Positions 13,046 to 20,000 of a stretch of DNA of 20,000 nucleotides are shown piece by piece (position 1 is the first letter of the stretch; each line of letters begins with the position of its first letter). Below the pieces are notes generated by a model. It saw nothing but the letters and a program-made list of their open reading frames with translations. It had not been told where the DNA came from and did not search any database. Position numbers and translations under genes: made by a program. The stretch is from an uncultured virus (IMG/VR IMGVR_UViG_3300042908_000623) (lineage: Duplodnaviria > Heunggongvirae > Uroviricota > Caudoviricetes). The DNA is taken from IMG/VR virus record IMGVR_UViG_3300042908_000623. One strand, written 5' to 3'.

Positions 13046-13695
13046 TGAACCAGATCAACAGCAAGCACATCATCGCAATTTTGAAGCATTTGGGATACGG
13101 CGGATTCGCCGCCAATGTCCCGGAGAATCTGGATTTATTCCAGACTCTGACCAACAACGAAACGTCAATGAGAATTCGTCGCATCGAGCATACTTGCACT
13201 TTCGAGTGGAGCTCTCATGAGCGTCCCCAGCTTTACCGACGCGCGACGCTTGCGCTTGAGGGCGACACGCTGACGTTTACGGAGACATTTGAGCCCCGAT
13301 CCTACTCAGAGCGCAGCCACTGGCGCGCGCTCTACGCAGCCACCCATCAGGGCGACGACGGACTTTTTGAGGGGACTGTATGGTCAGAACTGGCCGCCCA
13401 AATGACCCTGCCGGGAAAGCGCATTTATCCGCCGGGGACGTCCTACCTGCGAGTTCAGGACGAACTACAGACCGCCAACCCATCAGTCTGGCGATGGCTG
13501 AAATTTTCGTGGGCAGTCATATCGCTTCGCCCAGGCCTCTGGACAGGTGACCCACACCTGCCGATGGAGATCGTCGATGAAGATCCTATCGGCCCGTGGA
13601 CGTCATTCGGGCTCATCTACGAGTCGTCCTGTGGCCGGACGACCGGCGCGGCAATGGTCACTCCGTTCCGGCGATGCCGATTGGAGGTGGCATAA
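13045..13695 (+). CDS. Hypothetical protein (216 aa)
   Basis: RBS AGGAG; long ORF within the operon. Confidence 0.75.
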   Translation: MNQINSKHIIAILKHLGYGGFAANVPENLDLFQTLTNNETSMRIRRIEHTCTFEWSSHERPQLYRRATLALEGDTLTFTETFEPRSYSERSHWRALYAATHQGDDGLFEGTVWSELAAQMTLPGKRIYPPGTSYLRVQDELQTANPSVWRWLKFSWAVISLRPGLWTGDPHLPMEIVDEDPIGPWTSFGLIYESSCGRTTGAAMVTPFRRCRLEVA

Positions 13696-13865
13696 TGCGC
13701 ACAATCAATCTTTGGCGGCCAGTCGATGGCACCACCTCTATCGCTATTCGATGGATCGTCGCCTACCAGGTGGACGAGGACATAATCATCGAGACGCTTG
13801 ACGGTGTTACCCGGAGATTCCCGGTAACACCCAGCAATATGGCGGAAATGAAAAAACTTAAGTAA
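13695..13865 (+). CDS. Hypothetical protein (56 aa)
   Basis: TAATG coupling, RBS GGAGGTGG; MRTINLWRPVDG... Confidence 0.65.
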   Translation: MRTINLWRPVDGTTSIAIRWIVAYQVDEDIIIETLDGVTRRFPVTPSNMAEMKKLK

Positions 13866-13879
13866 CTGTTATTTTCTTG

Positions 13880-13908
13880 TTGACAAATAAGGGCGGTAGT
13901 CATAATAT
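13880..13908 (+). promoter_or_regulatory. Rightward early sigma70 promoter 2
   Basis: TTGACA-17 nt-TAATAT; 13858-13892 matches 12094-12128 at 29/35 positions. Confidence 0.8.
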
Positions 13909-13938
13909 CGCCCTGTCAGCAAATACTACAGGAGGACG

Positions 13939-14154
13939 ATGATGATGGACGAACAACCGATTGAAATTCAGCTCGAATACCAGGCGTGGCTTGACTCAAC
14001 GCGCCAGTGCGTTGACGAGGATTGCCTCAATGGCGTGATCGTTGGCCCCACATACTTGGCATTTGACGGCAGCGTCAATTGGTCAGAGACACCGTGCCCG
14101 ATATGCGCACCTGACATCGCGTCAGGGTGCGACGACGAGAACATCCCTTTTTAA
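13939..14154 (+). CDS. Small Cys4 protein with SSB-like acidic C-terminal tail
   Basis: RBS AGGAGG; CVDEDC...CPIC; ends DDENIPF. Confidence 0.7.
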   Translation: MMMDEQPIEIQLEYQAWLDSTRQCVDEDCLNGVIVGPTYLAFDGSVNWSETPCPICAPDIASGCDDENIPF

Positions 14155-14196
14155 CGCAGTTATCAGGGGCTACGGCCCCACAACAGGAGATCACCA

Positions 14197-14646
14197 ATGA
14201 ATCGAATATTGAACCTCACCCAGCACACACCTACTCCAGAGCAGATCGCCGCCGGAGTGACCTGCGGCGACATCAACGATCTCTCACAGCCGAAAGAAAT
14301 TGCGGCACTCCTGACTTTTGATACGCTTCCCACGCCCGTTGAGGTGCGCCATCGGGCCGAGCGGCTGGCGGAGATCGCCAGCAAAGCTACAACGCTCGTC
14401 GATTACGGCGGAGACTCCGGTCTCTGTGCCAACGAGCGATTCCAGTTTGCGATGATCGGCGGCGCGCCGTACCTGATGGCCCCGCTCGAGTCCGCCCTTC
14501 GTGCGCACGGCATCACGCCTGTGTACGCTTTCAGCGTCCGGGAAAGCGTCGATCAGGTGCAGCCGGACGGCAGCGTCCGCAAGGTTGCCGTGTTCCGTCA
14601 CGCTGGATTCGTCGGCTGCGAGGCTGACGAGACGGACAGTTTCTAA
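14197..14646 (+). CDS. Csx20-like (CARF/Rossmann-related) protein, candidate ring nuclease
   Basis: ILNLTQHTPTPEQ ... AMIGGAPYLMAPLESALRAHGITPVYAFSVRESVD...DGSVRKVAVFRHAGF parallels the Csx20 pattern as I recall it (H-x-x-T-x-x-Q; V-L-I-Q-G; G-x-x-P-V-Y-A-T-T-x-R; K-x-S-x-F-x-H-x-R-F). The ORF is solid; the family call is moderate. Confidence 0.6.
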   Translation: MNRILNLTQHTPTPEQIAAGVTCGDINDLSQPKEIAALLTFDTLPTPVEVRHRAERLAEIASKATTLVDYGGDSGLCANERFQFAMIGGAPYLMAPLESALRAHGITPVYAFSVRESVDQVQPDGSVRKVAVFRHAGFVGCEADETDSF

Positions 14647-14652
14647 ATTTTC

Positions 14653-14687
14653 AAGCCACTTCGATGTAGATCGGAGTGGCTTTTCTT
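14653..14687 (+). terminator. Intrinsic terminator
   Basis: AAGCCACTTCGAT-GTAG-ATCGGAGTGGCTT-TTCTT. Confidence 0.7.
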
Positions 14688-14698
14688 GCGTGGAGGAT

Positions 14699-14866
14699 AT
14701 GATGGAATACAGCGACGACGACATCCGCAACGACGACTACGATCTCGATCGTGATTATCCCGAGGATGATGACGATCGAGAAGAACGCGCCCCGGACGAC
14801 GTTATCCGGCGCGACAATGCAGATTTGATAAATGACTGGCTGCGACGCAGCCGCAGCACCTGGTAG
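14699..14866 (+). CDS. Highly acidic small protein (55 aa)
   Basis: RBS GGAGG; 21 of 55 residues are D/E (MMEYSDDDIRNDDYDLDRDYPEDDDDREE...). Confidence 0.65.
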   Translation: MMEYSDDDIRNDDYDLDRDYPEDDDDREERAPDDVIRRDNADLINDWLRRSRSTW

Positions 14867-14873
14867 GAGGACT

Positions 14874-15794
14874 ATGAGCACAGCAATGACAGCACCCACG
14901 ACACCCGGCCAGATCATCGAAAGCGTTATTACGCGCGGTGATCTAGCCAAGCTCACTGCGGAGGAGCGCACTCGGTACTATTCGGAGGTCTGCCGATCGG
15001 TGGGCCTGAATCCCATGACCCAGCCATTCCAATACATTGAATTGGACGGCAAACTCACCCTTTACGCGCGCAAGGATGCCACCGACCAGCTCCGGCAAAT
15101 TCACGGCATATCGCTGACGATTGTCAGCCGTGAGCAGGTCGGTGACGTGTATGTCGTCACCGCACGGGCAACCACGGCCACAGGTCGCGTTGATGAGAGC
15201 ATCGGCGCGGTGCCCCTGACAAAAGAAAACGGTGAATGGAAAACCGCAGAAAAGAGCGGCAAGCGATATTTTCAAACCAATGGCACGAGCAAGCCGCTGA
15301 CCCATGACGCGATGGCTAACGCGCTTATGAAATGCGAGACCAAAGCCAAGCGGCGCGTCACGTTGTCGATTTGCGGCCTCGGTCTGCTGGATGAGACCGA
15401 ACTGGAAACAATACCAGGTGTACAGCCTGAACCGATGCCAGTATTGCCACCCAAAAAAGCACCACGCGCCATTTCTGAGGCTCCTGCGCCTGTTGTGGCC
15501 GCAGTTGACACCGGACTGGTCGAACAGCTTTCGCAGATCCTCGACGGGCTGGCTGGGTACGACGTTGCCGACGCGCTGATCCTGCAAGGCATCGCGAATA
15601 TGACCGGCCAGCAGTTGTCCGATCTCTCCACCGACTCTATCGGGCTGCTCTCGCCGAAGGAGCTGGAGACGCTGATAACGCGCTACGGCAACCGCCTTGA
15701 GCAGCTCGAGGCAGAGCGCGCCGGGCAGCCTGACCGGCATGCATTCGACGAGCCTACCACACCCGCCGATGACATCGCCGGGCCAACTTTTTAA
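14874..15794 (+). CDS. Single-strand annealing recombinase, RecT/Redbeta-like
   Basis: GDLAKLT.EER..YY..VC.SVGLNP, LYARKDATDQLR..HGIS, ANALMKCETKAKRRVTLSICGLGLLDETE; RBS AGGAGG. Confidence 0.75.
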   Translation: MSTAMTAPTTPGQIIESVITRGDLAKLTAEERTRYYSEVCRSVGLNPMTQPFQYIELDGKLTLYARKDATDQLRQIHGISLTIVSREQVGDVYVVTARATTATGRVDESIGAVPLTKENGEWKTAEKSGKRYFQTNGTSKPLTHDAMANALMKCETKAKRRVTLSICGLGLLDETELETIPGVQPEPMPVLPPKKAPRAISEAPAPVVAAVDTGLVEQLSQILDGLAGYDVADALILQGIANMTGQQLSDLSTDSIGLLSPKELETLITRYGNRLEQLEAERAGQPDRHAFDEPTTPADDIAGPTF

Positions 15795-15818
15795 CCATAC
15801 TATCAGGGGAGGGCAATA

Positions 15819-16301
15819 ATGCTAATAAAATCACAAAACGACGTGCGCGAATTTATGCGCACGTCGTTGATAAACGACCCTATCAAAGCAACCGCTACTT
15901 TTCAAAGTTTTCAGCACATGCGCGATCTCAATTACCCCCCGAAAAATGAGTGGAGATCGAGTCGCGTCGAATTTGAAGCCTACCTAGACACTATGACGGA
16001 TCTGGTATTAAAAGCACCAAACGTGCCTTCATTTAATTCAGATTGGTCGCAGTTTTTTACTCGCTTGGATTGGGCAAGGATCTTTTACTGCACTGAGTTG
16101 CATTATAGGCATCTATGCGCTGCTAGGCTGGGATGCAGAGTTTCAGAAATAGCAGACGCACTCATGATGCCTGGTTATTATCGTCAATGTAGCCAAACGG
16201 AATCTGAATCAGATATTAGTCCGACTCCAGCTCGTGCGAAAATACAGCCGCACTACGCATCTGCAAATTCTAATGATGTAGATGACATGATGTATGACTA
16301 A
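15819..16301 (+). CDS. Hypothetical protein (160 aa), AT-richer than neighbours
   Basis: RBS GGGAGG; visibly lower GC. Confidence 0.65.
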   Translation: MLIKSQNDVREFMRTSLINDPIKATATFQSFQHMRDLNYPPKNEWRSSRVEFEAYLDTMTDLVLKAPNVPSFNSDWSQFFTRLDWARIFYCTELHYRHLCAARLGCRVSEIADALMMPGYYRQCSQTESESDISPTPARAKIQPHYASANSNDVDDMMYD

Positions 16302-16554
16302 CAAACAAGCTCACGCAATCTTTGGTCGACACATTGCCAATGGGCGCGCAGTTCAGCTGCCTGTGCCAACTGGCAGGTCGATACAGGATGTCATCGAAGG
16401 TGAACGACTCTATATCGTAGCTGATCACAACGGACTGCTGGAGTGCGAAGCCGTCGCCACTAAAGTCCATGACATGGGCCCATATCACCTGACATGGCTC
16501 GTGGCTTACGATGGTCGCGCGGTGCGCGTTCGCGCAGAGGACGTGACCGATTAA
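16294..16554 (+). CDS. Hypothetical protein (86 aa)
   Basis: Overlaps the previous stop and fills the gap to the next intergenic hairpin. Confidence 0.6.
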   Translation: MTNKQAHAIFGRHIANGRAVQLPVPTGRSIQDVIEGERLYIVADHNGLLECEAVATKVHDMGPYHLTWLVAYDGRAVRVRAEDVTD

Positions 16555-16597
16555 CAATTCACCACCAGGGGAGGGCAACCTCCCCGAAAGGACAAAA

Positions 16598-16942
16598 ATG
16601 ATTGACGCAACAGATTTCACTCAATACGCGCAGTGTCGCCTTATCCTTGAGGCATTGACTCGCGCTGGCAACCGGCAATCGCAGACTGCACAGGACGCAT
16701 TGGTCGCCAACCGGGATGCCGAGCTTGCCAAATACTACGCACTCCTTGATGCCGTAAATCAGGCGCAGATGGAGTGTGATCGCGCACTGCTGGCGATTGC
16801 GCGCGCGATCTTGGCCAGTGAGAATCCTGGTGACGTCGTAGTGGACACGCTGGATGCAATCAGCATGTACAGTCACGCATATATAGCGTTGGCTCCTGAC
16901 ATCGTGACCGAGCTGACCGCTATTGCACAGGAGGCGCGATGA
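16598..16942 (+). CDS. Hypothetical helical protein (114 aa)
   Basis: RBS AAGGA after hairpin GGGGAGG-GCAA-CCTCCCC; ATGA coupling to dcd. Confidence 0.7.
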   Translation: MIDATDFTQYAQCRLILEALTRAGNRQSQTAQDALVANRDAELAKYYALLDAVNQAQMECDRALLAIARAILASENPGDVVVDTLDAISMYSHAYIALAPDIVTELTAIAQEAR

Positions 16943-17565
16943 TCCGCAGTGACAATTGGTGGCATCAGCACGGGCCACAGATCCTCAACGTTTTCCACGC
17001 TGGTCAGGTGCGGGAAGCTCATAGGCCTGATTATACGCATGGTATTAGTCGGCCTTGTCCGGTCGAGGCAAGGCGCGTCATCAGCTATGGCACGTCGTCA
17101 GCAGGATATGACCTGTCGCTGAGCGTGGCAGGTCTGCAGCTGTTTACGGCTGTTGAGAACGTGGTCATTGACCCAAAGCGTTTTGATGATCAATGTTTGA
17201 CGTCGTTAGAAGTAAAGCACGACAATAAATCTAATGCCTACTACACACTGCCGGCGCACTCGTACGCGCTGGGCGTAAGCCACGAGCGCATCACGATGCC
17301 TGATGATCATCTCGGGCTCGTGATTGGCAAGTCAACTTATGCGCGGTGCGGACTCATCCTCAACACGACACCACTTGAACCCGGCTGGACGGGCCAGCTT
17401 GTGCTTGAGCTGTCCAACGCCACGCCTCTACCGATGCGCGTATATGCGCACGAGGGCATCGGCCAGCTGGTGATGATTGCACTCGACGAGCGTCCTGCTG
17501 TCACGTACGGTGACCGGCAGGGCAAATACCAAGATCAGCGCGGCATTGTGACCGCGCGTGCATAG
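16939..17565 (+). CDS. dcd: dCTP deaminase
   Basis: ISYGTSSAGYDL, IDPKRFD, GKSTYARCG, TPLEPGWTGQLVLELSN, YAHEGIGQL, YGDRQGKYQDQRGI. Confidence 0.95.
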   Translation: MIRSDNWWHQHGPQILNVFHAGQVREAHRPDYTHGISRPCPVEARRVISYGTSSAGYDLSLSVAGLQLFTAVENVVIDPKRFDDQCLTSLEVKHDNKSNAYYTLPAHSYALGVSHERITMPDDHLGLVIGKSTYARCGLILNTTPLEPGWTGQLVLELSNATPLPMRVYAHEGIGQLVMIALDERPAVTYGDRQGKYQDQRGIVTARA

Positions 17566-17573
17566 GGGGAGCG

Positions 17574-17855
17574 ATGGCGGAAAAGTGGGAAGTGGTAAAA
17601 CAACCGTTTGAGCGCGAAATAGTGCGCACCGTTGAATATGGCGTCTTTGCGAAAAATGGCAAAAAGCTGGTAGCCAACGTCACGAGCAGCAAAGATGCGC
17701 TGTTATGTGCAGCATCGCCGCTGATGCTGGAGGCGTTGCAGCGATTGCTCTACCTCATTGAGCGTAACGACAGCGTGACTCACAATATCGAGTATGCGGA
17801 TTCGACCATACTCGACCAAGCACGAGCTGCAATCGCAGCTGCGAAGGGGGAGTGA
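17574..17855 (+). CDS. Hypothetical phage protein (AAAPELLEAL-type family)
   Basis: DALLCAASPLMLEALQRLL...ARAAIAAAKGE, a motif common in phage early genes. Confidence 0.7.
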   Translation: MAEKWEVVKQPFEREIVRTVEYGVFAKNGKKLVANVTSSKDALLCAASPLMLEALQRLLYLIERNDSVTHNIEYADSTILDQARAAIAAAKGE

Positions 17856-17956
17856 TGGCGCGCAATTAAACACGTTCGAAATTTCGTGTTTGATTTCGTG
17901 TTTCATTAACGGAGTTTGAAACGCTTTTCAGGCTCCACAAAATCAGGAGGACAATT

Positions 17957-18094
17957 ATGCAGACACAGAACGACAACAACCAGAAACCAGAGCGCGTGAT
18001 TCGCATACAGATGCGCACGTTGATCTGGATTGGCATCATTATCGGCATCATCGCAGGGCAGACGATTCTTGCCACGCTTGGAGGTGTGCGCTAA
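17957..18094 (+). CDS. Small membrane protein (45 aa)
   Basis: RBS AGGAGG; LIWIGIIIGIIAGQTILATL. Confidence 0.65.
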   Translation: MQTQNDNNQKPERVIRIQMRTLIWIGIIIGIIAGQTILATLGGVR

Positions 18095-18252
18095 TGGATT
18101 ACGTGATCATCTATCTACTGGCAACGACGTTTCCACTGGGGCTATTCCTGATAACACGGAAAAGCGAAACCACAGGCTGGAAACTGTTTGCGCTCGTCAC
18201 GATGGCCCTCATCGGTTGGCTGGGCTGGCTCAGATTCGGAGGTGGCGCGTGA
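18094..18252 (+). CDS. Small two-TM protein (52 aa)
   Basis: TAATG coupling, RBS GGAGGTG; MDYVIIYLLATTFPLGLFLI...WKLFALVTMALIGWLGWL. Confidence 0.6.
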   Translation: MDYVIIYLLATTFPLGLFLITRKSETTGWKLFALVTMALIGWLGWLRFGGGA

Positions 18253-18332
18253 CAAAACAAGAGCATCCACTCCCGATCTTTCTCTTTTGCACAGGACTCG
18301 CGCTACTCGTTTATTTTCTGGCTATCTGGTAG
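18249..18332 (+). CDS. Small membrane peptide (27 aa)
   Basis: GTGA coupling, RBS GGAGGTGG; MTKQEHPLPIFLFCTGLALLVYFLAIW. Confidence 0.5.
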   Translation: MTKQEHPLPIFLFCTGLALLVYFLAIW

Positions 18333-18352
18333 ATGGCCACAACAGGAGAACG

Positions 18353-18817
18353 ATGAAACTGATAATTGCTTCAATACTCGTGATAGTCGCACTGGCTATT
18401 CCCGCCCACGCTCAGTCATTCGACGCACCTGGAGGGCCGGTGTGCGTCTATCGGCCAGAGACGATCACCACACAGCAGCCACTGCGCCGATCCGTAATCG
18501 TCCAGGGCAGAGCATACGGATACCTCCAGCCGGTAGACGCTGTGCAATACCTGCGCGTCGTCGGCGGATCGCGTGATGCGTTTTTTCAGCACGAGTCCGC
18601 ATCAGCTGCGGTGCAATACTCGATTGCCGGATCGCCGATCATCGGTGACATTCGGTTGGCAGCGTGGCACGACGACGCGCCGAATATGTCACTGGGTGGA
18701 CTCGTGCGCGCGTACTCGATCAGCGGCAACCCGCAGCAGCGCGCGTATTTCGGATTGTGGCTTGTGCGCGTCGTGGAATCGGCATTTAACGACGGCTGCA
18801 ACGGAGGTGCAAGATGA
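18353..18817 (+). CDS. Secreted/periplasmic protein (154 aa)
   Basis: RBS AGGAG; Sec signal MKLIIASILVIVALAIPAHA-Q. Confidence 0.75.
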   Translation: MKLIIASILVIVALAIPAHAQSFDAPGGPVCVYRPETITTQQPLRRSVIVQGRAYGYLQPVDAVQYLRVVGGSRDAFFQHESASAAVQYSIAGSPIIGDIRLAAWHDDAPNMSLGGLVRAYSISGNPQQRAYFGLWLVRVVESAFNDGCNGGAR

Positions 18818-18897
18818 TTATCGTCGGTGGATTTATCGCTGCGCTTCTGTGGATATGGTGGACGAGAGACGATGGAAGCGACGGCGGAGGATTCTGA
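18814..18897 (+). CDS. Small membrane peptide (27 aa)
   Basis: ATGA coupling, RBS GGAGGTG; MIIVGGFIAALLWIWWTRDDGSDGGGF. Confidence 0.5.
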   Translation: MIIVGGFIAALLWIWWTRDDGSDGGGF

Positions 18898-18932
18898 GGA
18901 TAAGCGCGTGGCCAGTTTGGCCATACTAACCC

Positions 18933-18971
18933 ATAGGACGGCTTGCAATAATCGATTGTAGGCCGTCCTAT
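18933..18971. terminator. Long hairpin between convergent operons (probable terminator)
   Basis: ATAGGACGGCTTGCAAT-AATCG-ATTGTAGGCCGTCCTAT, a 17-bp stem with two G-U pairs on the + strand. Confidence 0.65.
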
Positions 18972-18984
18972 TGCGTTTTAGGGG

Positions 18985-19425
18985 CTATGTCGTGGCAATC
19001 GTGACACCCTGCTGGGCGCAGATAGTCCCAAGTTCAAGCGTGTACGCGCCGCCATTGCTATCAATTGCCACAATATCGTAGACGTACTCCTGCCCCGGTG
19101 TGATTAATGCGGTCTGCGTTTTGCTGGCAATCACTGCCAGCTCGATCGAATTGCCGTTCGTATTGCCGTCGATTATATGGCCGGTTGCGGTCGAGGTGCC
19201 GGTGATCGAAACCTGAAAGATCGCCGCGGCATCCGTATCGGTCGCCGACGCTTTCACCGTCCAGTAAACTTTGCTGATCGTCACGCCTGCCGACAGGCCT
19301 GTGTAAACTCGCGTGATCTCCCAGGTATCACCCGCCACCAGCCGCCACAAATAGACGTTTGATTTTGTCAGCGGTGATAACGCAATGGTGCGCGAGTCTG
19401 CCGCCAGTGTCTGATCGTGTGCCAT
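18985..19425 (-). CDS. Virion-associated beta-sandwich protein (BppU N-terminal-like)
   Basis: AGDTWEI, YWTVK, SKTQTALI...YVYDI...YTLELGTI...GVT pattern; located in the tail gene cluster. Confidence 0.65.
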   Translation of the reverse strand: MAHDQTLAADSRTIALSPLTKSNVYLWRLVAGDTWEITRVYTGLSAGVTISKVYWTVKASATDTDAAAIFQVSITGTSTATGHIIDGNTNGNSIELAVIASKTQTALITPGQEYVYDIVAIDSNGGAYTLELGTICAQQGVTIATT

Positions 19426-19643
19426 TATTCTGCCTCCAGTCTGTACGTGGTGACGATCTCGGGGCTGTACGGATCGGCAATGACAAGCGGTGTGCGCGCT
19501 CGATCGTGCGTGTAGATGTCGTCAGCCTGTTCGCGAGTCAGCCATTTTGTTTTGGTAAGCAACTCCACTTCACGAATAGTCATTGTGCCAGCAATCCACC
19601 GTGCCAACGTGCGACGGTATACAGGGGTCGGATCAATCATCAT
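19425..19643 (-). CDS. Small tail-region protein (XkdX-like position)
   Basis: Coupled to both neighbours; KWLTREQADDI. Confidence 0.55.
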   Translation of the reverse strand: MMIDPTPVYRRTLARWIAGTMTIREVELLTKTKWLTREQADDIYTHDRARTPLVIADPYSPEIVTTYRLEAE

Positions 19644-19870
19644 GCGCCTCCATCCATCAGCATATCAGTCACCAGCTCGAGAGCCTCGAGGCGTTCATCA
19701 AAAGTTGGAAAAACTGGAATGATGGCCTCAACGTCAGGCGGATCGGCAATATTGCCAAGAGCCACCCACGCTAAATAATCCCGATAATCGCCATTCGATA
19801 AATCCATTGGAATCGAGGTTGAACCATCGCGAATAATAAACCCATTTGTAGTCAATTTGTATCGAGGCAT
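19640..19870 (-). CDS. Tail-fibre-associated/assembly chaperone-like protein
   Basis: IPMDLSNGDYRDYLAWVALGN...DERLEALE; follows a gene ending in SAEL. Confidence 0.6.
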   Translation of the reverse strand: MPRYKLTTNGFIIRDGSTSIPMDLSNGDYRDYLAWVALGNIADPPDVEAIIPVFPTFDERLEALELVTDMLMDGGA

Positions 19871-20000
19871 TTACAACTCCGCTGAGACGACAACGTAGGC
19901 AAAAGTACCAGAGTTTGCGTCCTGAAATAGGCCAGCTGTGCCGGAAGTGAGATCGGCGGCTGTTCGAGTTGCCTGCATATGCAAGGCGTTCCGCGATATT
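19871..20000 (-). CDS. C-terminus of probable tail fibre protein (partial)
   Basis: ...AGLFQDANSGTFAYVVVSAEL*, a typical tail fibre ending, directly followed by the next ATG. Confidence 0.55.
   Translation of the reverse strand, partial: ISRNALHMQATRTAADLTSGTAGLFQDANSGTFAYVVVSAEL

Follow-up and report, generated by a model that had tools for sequence, protein, structure and literature searches.

The subject of this report is a short open reading frame (ORF) in IMG/VR virus record IMGVR_UViG_3300042908_000623, which derives from an uncultured virus of the Caudoviricetes and was analysed as one stretch of 20,000 nucleotides, referred to here as the window. The ORF starts with ATG, occupies positions 14197..14646 of the plus strand and is preceded by AGGAG 7 nucleotides 5' of its start. 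Its product of 149 amino acids is, judging from profile matches, a family alignment and a structure model, a divergent Csx20-type (putatively CARF-like) protein and a candidate ring nuclease for cyclic tetra-adenylate (cA4). An earlier note on this DNA, made from the letters of the sequence, had proposed a phage-encoded anti-CRISPR protein of the Csx20 kind directed against type III systems. The phage setting is borne out by genes for a portal protein, the large and small terminase subunits, ThyX, DHFR and a VRR-NUC protein, together with an O-like replication initiator, a MerR/excisionase-like protein and a dCTP deaminase. The same note described the gene as having no cas context, and this holds for the ORFs scanned, since no cas gene was found in the window with Pfam and PHROGs on 28 ORFs and with PADLOC on three proteins.

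The gene is the second of a compact unit in the rightward, non-structural arm of the phage DNA, and the two-gene arrangement between a promoter and a terminator that the earlier note had described is present. A sigma-70-like promoter sequence (TTGACA, 17 nucleotides, TAATAT; 10 of 12 matches; 13880..13908, plus strand) lies 5' of the unit, and it is to be read as a consensus match only, because six promoter-like sites occur between 11500 and 17000 against 3.8 ± 1.8 in shuffled sequences. Its -10 hexamer is overlapped by an inverted repeat, AGGGCGGTA/TATCGCCCT (13890..13914, no strand assigned), which occurs once in the window where 0.03 occurrences are expected; the repeat is a possible operator and is the sole hint of regulation in the unit. 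The first gene, known from the ORF list (13939..14154, plus strand), encodes a cysteine-rich protein of 71 amino acids (C24, C29, C53, C56 and C64) which, at the thresholds applied, had no match among the families of Pfam, PHROGs, NCBIfam and PADLOC and gave only leads below 0.9 in an Atlas search. It adjoins the Csx20-like gene only in the close relatives L063 (100% identity) and L064 (46%), and at a further locus, L078, a homologue of 34% identity lies on the opposite side of the Csx20-like gene. Behind the unit stands a hairpin resembling an intrinsic terminator, with a 13-base-pair stem and a 4-nucleotide loop followed by UUUUCUU (14653..14689, plus strand; free energy -23.5 kcal/mol, z -4.65); none of 200 shuffles was equally stable, and a consensus terminator scan did not list it. 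The unit may be expressed early, as the earlier note had supposed.

The likeness to Csx20, to which the earlier note had pointed, is upheld by profile searches. Csx20 is a ring nuclease for cA4 that stands alone in type III CRISPR loci and with which bacteria remove the alarm molecule of this immunity. With the single protein as query, the NCBIfam model CAS_Csx20 (NF040559) matches residues 101-138 with an E value of 5.3e-6 and 26.8 bits, two PADLOC Csx20 models (PDLC01384 and PDLC01659) match with E values of 4.3e-7 and 9e-7, and the PADLOC Csx15/20 model matches residues 51-138 with an E value of 1.2e-4. The local copies of Pfam and PHROGs yielded no Pfam family at E ≤ 1 and no PHROGs family. 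A precomputed Pfam label, PF27247, is attached to all 120 homologues among the matches listed; this label is absent from the local Pfam copy and was not found in the searchable literature. At the level of the family, 95 of 98 members match CAS_Csx20 at E ≤ 1e-3 (best E 2e-10), and one relative (L143) matches profile positions 2-121 of 124. We further compared two alignments, one of 98 sequences of the window's family (A1) and one of 10 canonical Csx20 proteins of at least 142 bits each (A2). In hhalign they align along 114 columns, close to the entire length, with a probability of 95.5% and an E value of 1.4e-8. A sequence search of the PDB gave one chance match (E 0.75) with the single protein and no match with the profile.

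The correspondence between the two groups extends to individual residues. Common to both in a joint alignment (window/canonical) are H10/H7, T13/T10, Q16/Q13, L39/L33, G89/G72, P108/P91, Y110/Y93, R115/R98, F133/F116, H135/H118 and F138/F121, and S113 stands opposite T96. Each residue that does not vary in canonical Csx20 (H7, Q13, G72, Y93, T96, R98, F116 and H118) thus has a counterpart in the window protein, and each of these counterparts (H10, Q16, G89, Y110, S113, R115, F133 and H135) is kept in 86-100% of the 98 members. The four motifs quoted in the earlier note are all present, namely LTQHTPTPEQ at residues 7-16, AMIGG at 85-89, GITPVYAFSVRES at 105-117 and DGSVRKVAVFRHAGF at 124-138, and they are not chance features, because their residues are conserved in the 98-sequence alignment. 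Both groups share a similar size of about 125-150 amino acids, and their motifs come in the same order, from a strand with x-H behind it through T..Q, a glycine loop, P-x-Y-x-x-S/T-x-R and D-G to F-x-H-x-x-F.

They differ in their signatures, since the clade of the window protein carries N-L-T-Q-H and M-I-G-G-A-P where canonical Csx20 carries L-I-F-S-H and Q-G-D-F-G-A; the window protein, moreover, has a variable central insert of about 20 residues, and its gene lies in phage DNA and not in a CRISPR locus. Within A1, N6, T8, Q9, H10 and G137 are invariant, and at least 90% of the sequences conserve L7, Q16, G20, M86-P91, S113, R115, D124, G125, K129, F133 and H135. Bit scores separate the two groups cleanly. 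On the A1 profile the median score of 96 window-type genes is 172 bits and the lowest is 70, and on the canonical profile none of them exceeds 30.7; the 10 canonical proteins have a median score of 213 bits on the canonical profile and do not exceed 29.8 on A1. The canonical profile is to be taken as narrow because A2 was drawn from one bacterial class. Canonical Csx20 was found in 26 of 40 genomes of this class with 142-171 bits, the range of canonical proteins on CAS_Csx20, whose equivalog cut-off is 70 bits. A genome of this class (G002) carries both types, a canonical copy of 157 bits and a window-type copy of 36 bits. From the score below the cut-off, taken together with the full-length profile homology and the clean separation of bit scores, it follows that the 149-residue protein is, on sequence grounds, a true Csx20 homologue that belongs to a sister clade outside the curated equivalog. 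The proposal of an anti-CRISPR of the Csx20 kind is thus supported in part: the homology stands, the protein falls outside the equivalog, and the ring-nuclease or anti-CRISPR activity is a putative one.

An AlphaFold2 model of the protein (predicted local distance difference test, pLDDT, 90.5; predicted template modelling score 0.82) has an alpha/beta fold whose last element is a long beta-hairpin. Of the checks that the earlier note had suggested, the profile comparison gave a match to Csx20, and Foldseek gave no PDB match at E ≤ 0.001; among the weak matches is the Crn1 ring nuclease Sso2081, with a probability of 0.82 and an E value of 0.32. In BFVD there are three matches at E ≤ 0.001, all to uncharacterised viral proteins, and no AcrIII-1-like entry is among the structural matches listed. 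The fold similarity is generic, since racemases, kinases and periplasmic binding proteins match at the same Z as CARF proteins. This agrees with a role outside defence signalling, for instance in the metabolism of RNA ends or nucleotides or in the regulation of phage genes, where the likeness to Csx20 would amount to a shared small Rossmann-like fold; the nucleotide-metabolism set of the window (ThyX, DHFR and dCTP deaminase) fits such a role as well. The homology to Csx20 is, however, of the sequence-profile kind, and because it extends over the whole length, invariant residues included, the likeness is more than one of fold. We regard a role outside defence as improbable, and the evidence of neighbouring genes, given below, bears on it from both sides.

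A homodimer of the protein is predicted with a score of 0.78 against 0.01 for the best control, three runs agree in 100% of the contacts, and the partner has a pLDDT of at least 86. Among proteins of solved structure, 20 of 30 that form pairs and one of 23 that are single chains reached the mark for a dimer, a calibration that holds only roughly here because adenosine monophosphate (AMP) was included in the model and a custom alignment was used. The predicted symmetric interface comprises residues 41-51, 87-98 (the GGAP loop and the next helix), 110-114 and 136-148. A dimer is likewise the published model of canonical Csx20, which matched Sso2081 and in which the conserved residues cluster at modelled AMP sites (PMC12409355).

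The ring-nuclease assays reported there concern canonical Csx20, which degraded cA4 fully in a buffer with ethylenediaminetetraacetic acid (EDTA) and cyclic tri-adenylate (cA3) at a ten-fold higher enzyme concentration (PMC12409355). Because the residues invariant in both clades are kept and the same kind of dimer is predicted, the window protein would most likely cleave cA4 at the axis of the dimer, independently of metal. We put it at somewhat better than even that the 149-residue protein is a metal-independent cA4 ring nuclease acting against type III CRISPR, and, as far as sequence can tell, the phage gene probably blunts type III CRISPR defence. Expression from its own promoter in the non-structural region would yield a small homodimeric CARF-like protein. 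For this protein we infer ligand binding, cleavage chemistry and an effect on immunity as follows. A pocket on the two-fold axis of the dimer would bind cA4 and would be lined by the T8-Q9-H10 loop after strand 1, the G88-G89-A90-P91 loop, and Y110, S113, R115 and H135 of the hairpin; metal-free cleavage would then give linear products with a 2',3'-cyclic phosphate end, the type III effectors that cA4 activates would remain inactive, and this would let the phage escape.

A protein of this kind might also act as a sponge, binding cyclic oligoadenylate (cOA) tightly with slow or no turnover. The related Csx15 is described as a good binder of cA4 and a very slow nuclease (PMC13148439), and it is the joint Csx15/20 model of PADLOC that covers residues 51-138 of the window protein. 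Nevertheless, the two His, the Arg, the Ser/Thr and the Tyr that the protein has in common with the catalytically active Csx20 are kept in 86-100% of the 98 members, and the same source argues that sponging copes poorly with the abundant cOA that type III systems produce and reports Csx15 as not seen in phages (PMC13148439). Sponging thus appears to us an improbable account of the protein.

The Crn1 ring nucleases (Sso2081 and Sis0455) and the CARF sensor domains (Cam1 and Csm6) also count among the closest systems known. The window protein has no sequence relationship to AcrIII-1 (Crn2), whose Pfam family we take to be DUF1874: the 149-residue protein matches no Pfam family at E ≤ 1, and its BFVD matches are uncharacterised viral homologues, so that the earlier note's assignment to a family other than AcrIII-1 is confirmed. 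The two resemble each other in their proposed role, that of a small viral dimeric enzyme destroying cA4 and thereby overcoming type III CRISPR (PMC12409355; PMC13551039). The validated viral ring nucleases named in the available parts of the cited literature are AcrIII-1 and the SAVED protein AcrIII-2 only. Csx20 itself has been recorded in four of 28,114 phage genomes (Hoikkala et al., 2025; PMC12409355), and csx20 homologues in acr-type operons have been proposed as co-opted counter-defence genes (NAR 2026; PMC13551039).

The clade of the window protein is large and is found mostly in viral or anonymous contexts. Among near-length candidates 2,771 proteins have E ≤ 1e-3. Counted as clusters at 50% identity, the family has 1,724 with E ≤ 1e-3, 1,237 of them with E ≤ 1e-10. 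A search with two peptide patterns gave 205 confirmed matches in viral contigs of IMG/VR and 59 in species-representative genomes, the latter spread over many phyla and including many metagenome-assembled genomes (MAGs) of Saccharibacteria and Paceibacterota. Among cultured-phage records tblastn found three copies in total: full-length ones in the Rhodothermus phage RM378 (43% identity) and the Fusobacterium phage JD-Fnp4 (30%), and one in the Pasteurella phage Pm86 with 56% identity over residues 85-139, which belongs to the clade of the window protein. Many of the closest relatives (P0001, P0002, P0007, P0008, P0013 and others) are about 235 amino acids long, up to 95% identical to the window protein, and have an additional domain of about 86 residues at the C-terminus that is missing from the 149-residue form of the window and from the 148-residue P0006 and P0011. 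This domain matched no Pfam or PHROGs family and had no usable Atlas match, and a Pfam search of 24 long or fused relatives found DUF4116 in one of them only. The 71, 15 and 149 codons of the window lie in one frame; the long relatives as a fusion of the 71-residue ORF with the gene were considered and rejected, as the extension is C-terminal. Fused canonical forms also exist, with the Csx20 domain as the C-terminus of open frames of 582-587 amino acids (L159 and L169), and at three loci (L004, L029 and L076) two phage-type copies lie close together as tandem or near-tandem paralogues.

The genomic neighbourhood of the clade holds no conserved partner gene, as seen in a clustering of 666 flanking ORFs from 93 loci, and consists mostly of anonymous genes. 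PADLOC was applied to 132 flanking proteins (two genes per side) of 42 bacterial loci. In a Hyphomicrobium MAG (L039, 5518-10372) the clade copy lies about 300 base pairs from a divergent cas10 (E 1e-102), which is followed by a gene for a Cas7/Cas5 fusion of type III-D; this copy is of the window's type, with 171 bits on A1 and 4 bits on A2. Two MAGs of the Saccharibacteria type (L026, 9998-12059, and L033, 1332-3457) have a Csx3-AAA gene of 500 codons (E 1e-45) directly 3' of the clade member, so that two ring-nuclease-like genes stand side by side there. In a Thauera MAG (L014, 10004-12133) a Cas5f homologue (E 2.6e-13) lies beside the clade member, and the L014 protein of the 407/406-residue class is homologous to a 406-residue ORF of Pm86 (30% identity, E 5e-61). 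In both Pm86 (L001:309-2446) and L014 the gene is located just 5' of these homologous proteins of 406-407 amino acids, and the small ORFs in between are unrelated. At another locus (L021) an RtcR-like CARF-AAA-HTH gene adjoins a clade member. Single matches to viperin-like, MzaA, methyltransferase, mad3 and HIT-family proteins occurred at other loci, and the remaining flanking proteins of the 42 loci gave no PADLOC match.

The layout in Pm86 has a csx20-like ORF of only 66 codons, then an Arc/CopG-like ribbon-helix-helix (RHH) gene (E 3e-6) and, further on, the 406-residue ORF. It equals the layout published for Pasteurella multocida, where csx20-aca14 stands next to an operon of AcrIF6 and a Cas5f homologue (PMC13551039). 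Two unrelated hosts thus have phages or prophages in which a clade member stands beside an anti-CRISPR operon with a Cas5f homologue. The unit in the window differs from csx20-aca14 in that it has no RHH or helix-turn-helix (HTH) gene and its partner is the unrelated cysteine-rich ORF, which lies upstream. Returning to a role outside defence signalling, it would be in keeping with the mostly anonymous neighbours, the lack of a conserved partner and the one member that adjoins the RtcR-like regulator; it is countered by the recurrent adjacency to cas10, to Csx3-AAA and to the anti-CRISPR operons with a Cas5f homologue.

Directly behind the terminator-like hairpin of the window there is a strongly acidic ORF of 55 codons (14699-14866, plus strand; 21 D/E and 9 K/R), which is conserved at 100% in L063 and partly in L064. 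It has no Pfam or PHROGs family, and to call it a small protein of the DNA-mimic type is only a guess. It is followed by an ORF of 306-320 codons (14832/14874-15794, plus strand) without a Pfam or PHROGs family, homologues of which lie one to two genes 3' of the Csx20-like gene in three loci including the window.

The reading of the window protein as a cA4 ring nuclease is supported by its homology, by the conserved residues it has in common with active Csx20, by the predicted dimer and by the phage and anti-defence context of its clade. Several observations weigh on the other side. With 26.8 bits the single protein falls short of the 70 bits set as cut-off for the curated Csx20 model, and its CAS_Csx20 match spans residues 101-138 only. 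Type III cas genes stand at one of the 42 bacterial loci only. With one Cas10 model, Cas10 was found in two of five genomes tested, as the adjacent gene in that of L039 and on another contig in that of L014, and the two 0.8-megabase Saccharibacteria genomes (L026 and L033) showed no Cas10 with this single model. The Pfam and PHROGs scans found no Aca-type HTH or RHH regulator in the two-gene unit, and a full-text literature search for Csx20 found no test of a phage Csx20 as an anti-CRISPR. Finally, polar N6, T8 and Q9 are invariant in the clade, and their counterparts in canonical Csx20 are L3, F5 and S/N6, so the pocket and the substrate may differ from those of Csx20.

This last point leads to the alternative that the protein is a counter-defence enzyme with another or broader target, such as cA3 (in the cyclic-oligonucleotide-based antiphage signalling system, CBASS, or in type III systems), cyclic hexa-adenylate (cA6), or another cyclic or 2',3'-cyclic-phosphate nucleotide. 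The clade-specific polar residues and the presence of the clade where no Cas10 was found speak in its favour. The only biochemically characterised relatives prefer cA4, as reported in PMC12409355, the sole cas genes beside a clade member are of type III-D, and the scan of 132 neighbours showed no CBASS gene. A different nucleotide signal is accordingly rated as unlikely, and cA4 is kept as the candidate substrate.

The gene also bears the trace of a recombination event. The nearest viral record (G001, locus L063) is 99.87% identical to the window over 14449-20000 and 92.7% identical over 13692-14267, and the segment 14268-14448, which is the central third of the gene, is unalignable. Between the two proteins 20 of 21 residues agree in positions 1-21, 22 of 71 alignment columns in positions 22-84, and all 65 residues in positions 85-149. 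A recombination breakpoint lies inside the gene, at the conserved AMIGGAP codons. One could go further and suppose that the clade with N-L-T-Q-H and M-I-G-G-A-P is a separate, mainly virus-borne ring-nuclease family, whose pocket was remodelled by the exchange of hydrophobic residues for polar N6, T8 and Q9 and whose substrates would be different from or broader than cA4; recapture by cells would have placed it in type III-D loci such as L039, and the swapped residues 22-84 would reflect an arms race at the protein surface. We think this scenario quite unlikely.

The concept of phage-borne Csx20 as a counter-defence protein is already in print (Hoikkala et al., 2025, PMC12409355; NAR 2026, PMC13551039), and the gene described here is a modest addition to it. 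What is new is a clade cleanly separated from canonical Csx20, the list of residues common to both clades, a clade member beside cas10, a Cas5f-homologue neighbour in a second and unrelated host, and a recombination breakpoint within the gene. The curated Csx20 model largely misses this clade, and surveys made with that model would therefore undercount phage ring nucleases. The locus in the window is a clean, compact and well-conserved candidate on which activity could first be tested, both biochemically and in vivo. By means of viral ring nucleases, phages can silence type III CRISPR signalling, and if the clade is active, it would constitute a third, CARF-like family of such enzymes.
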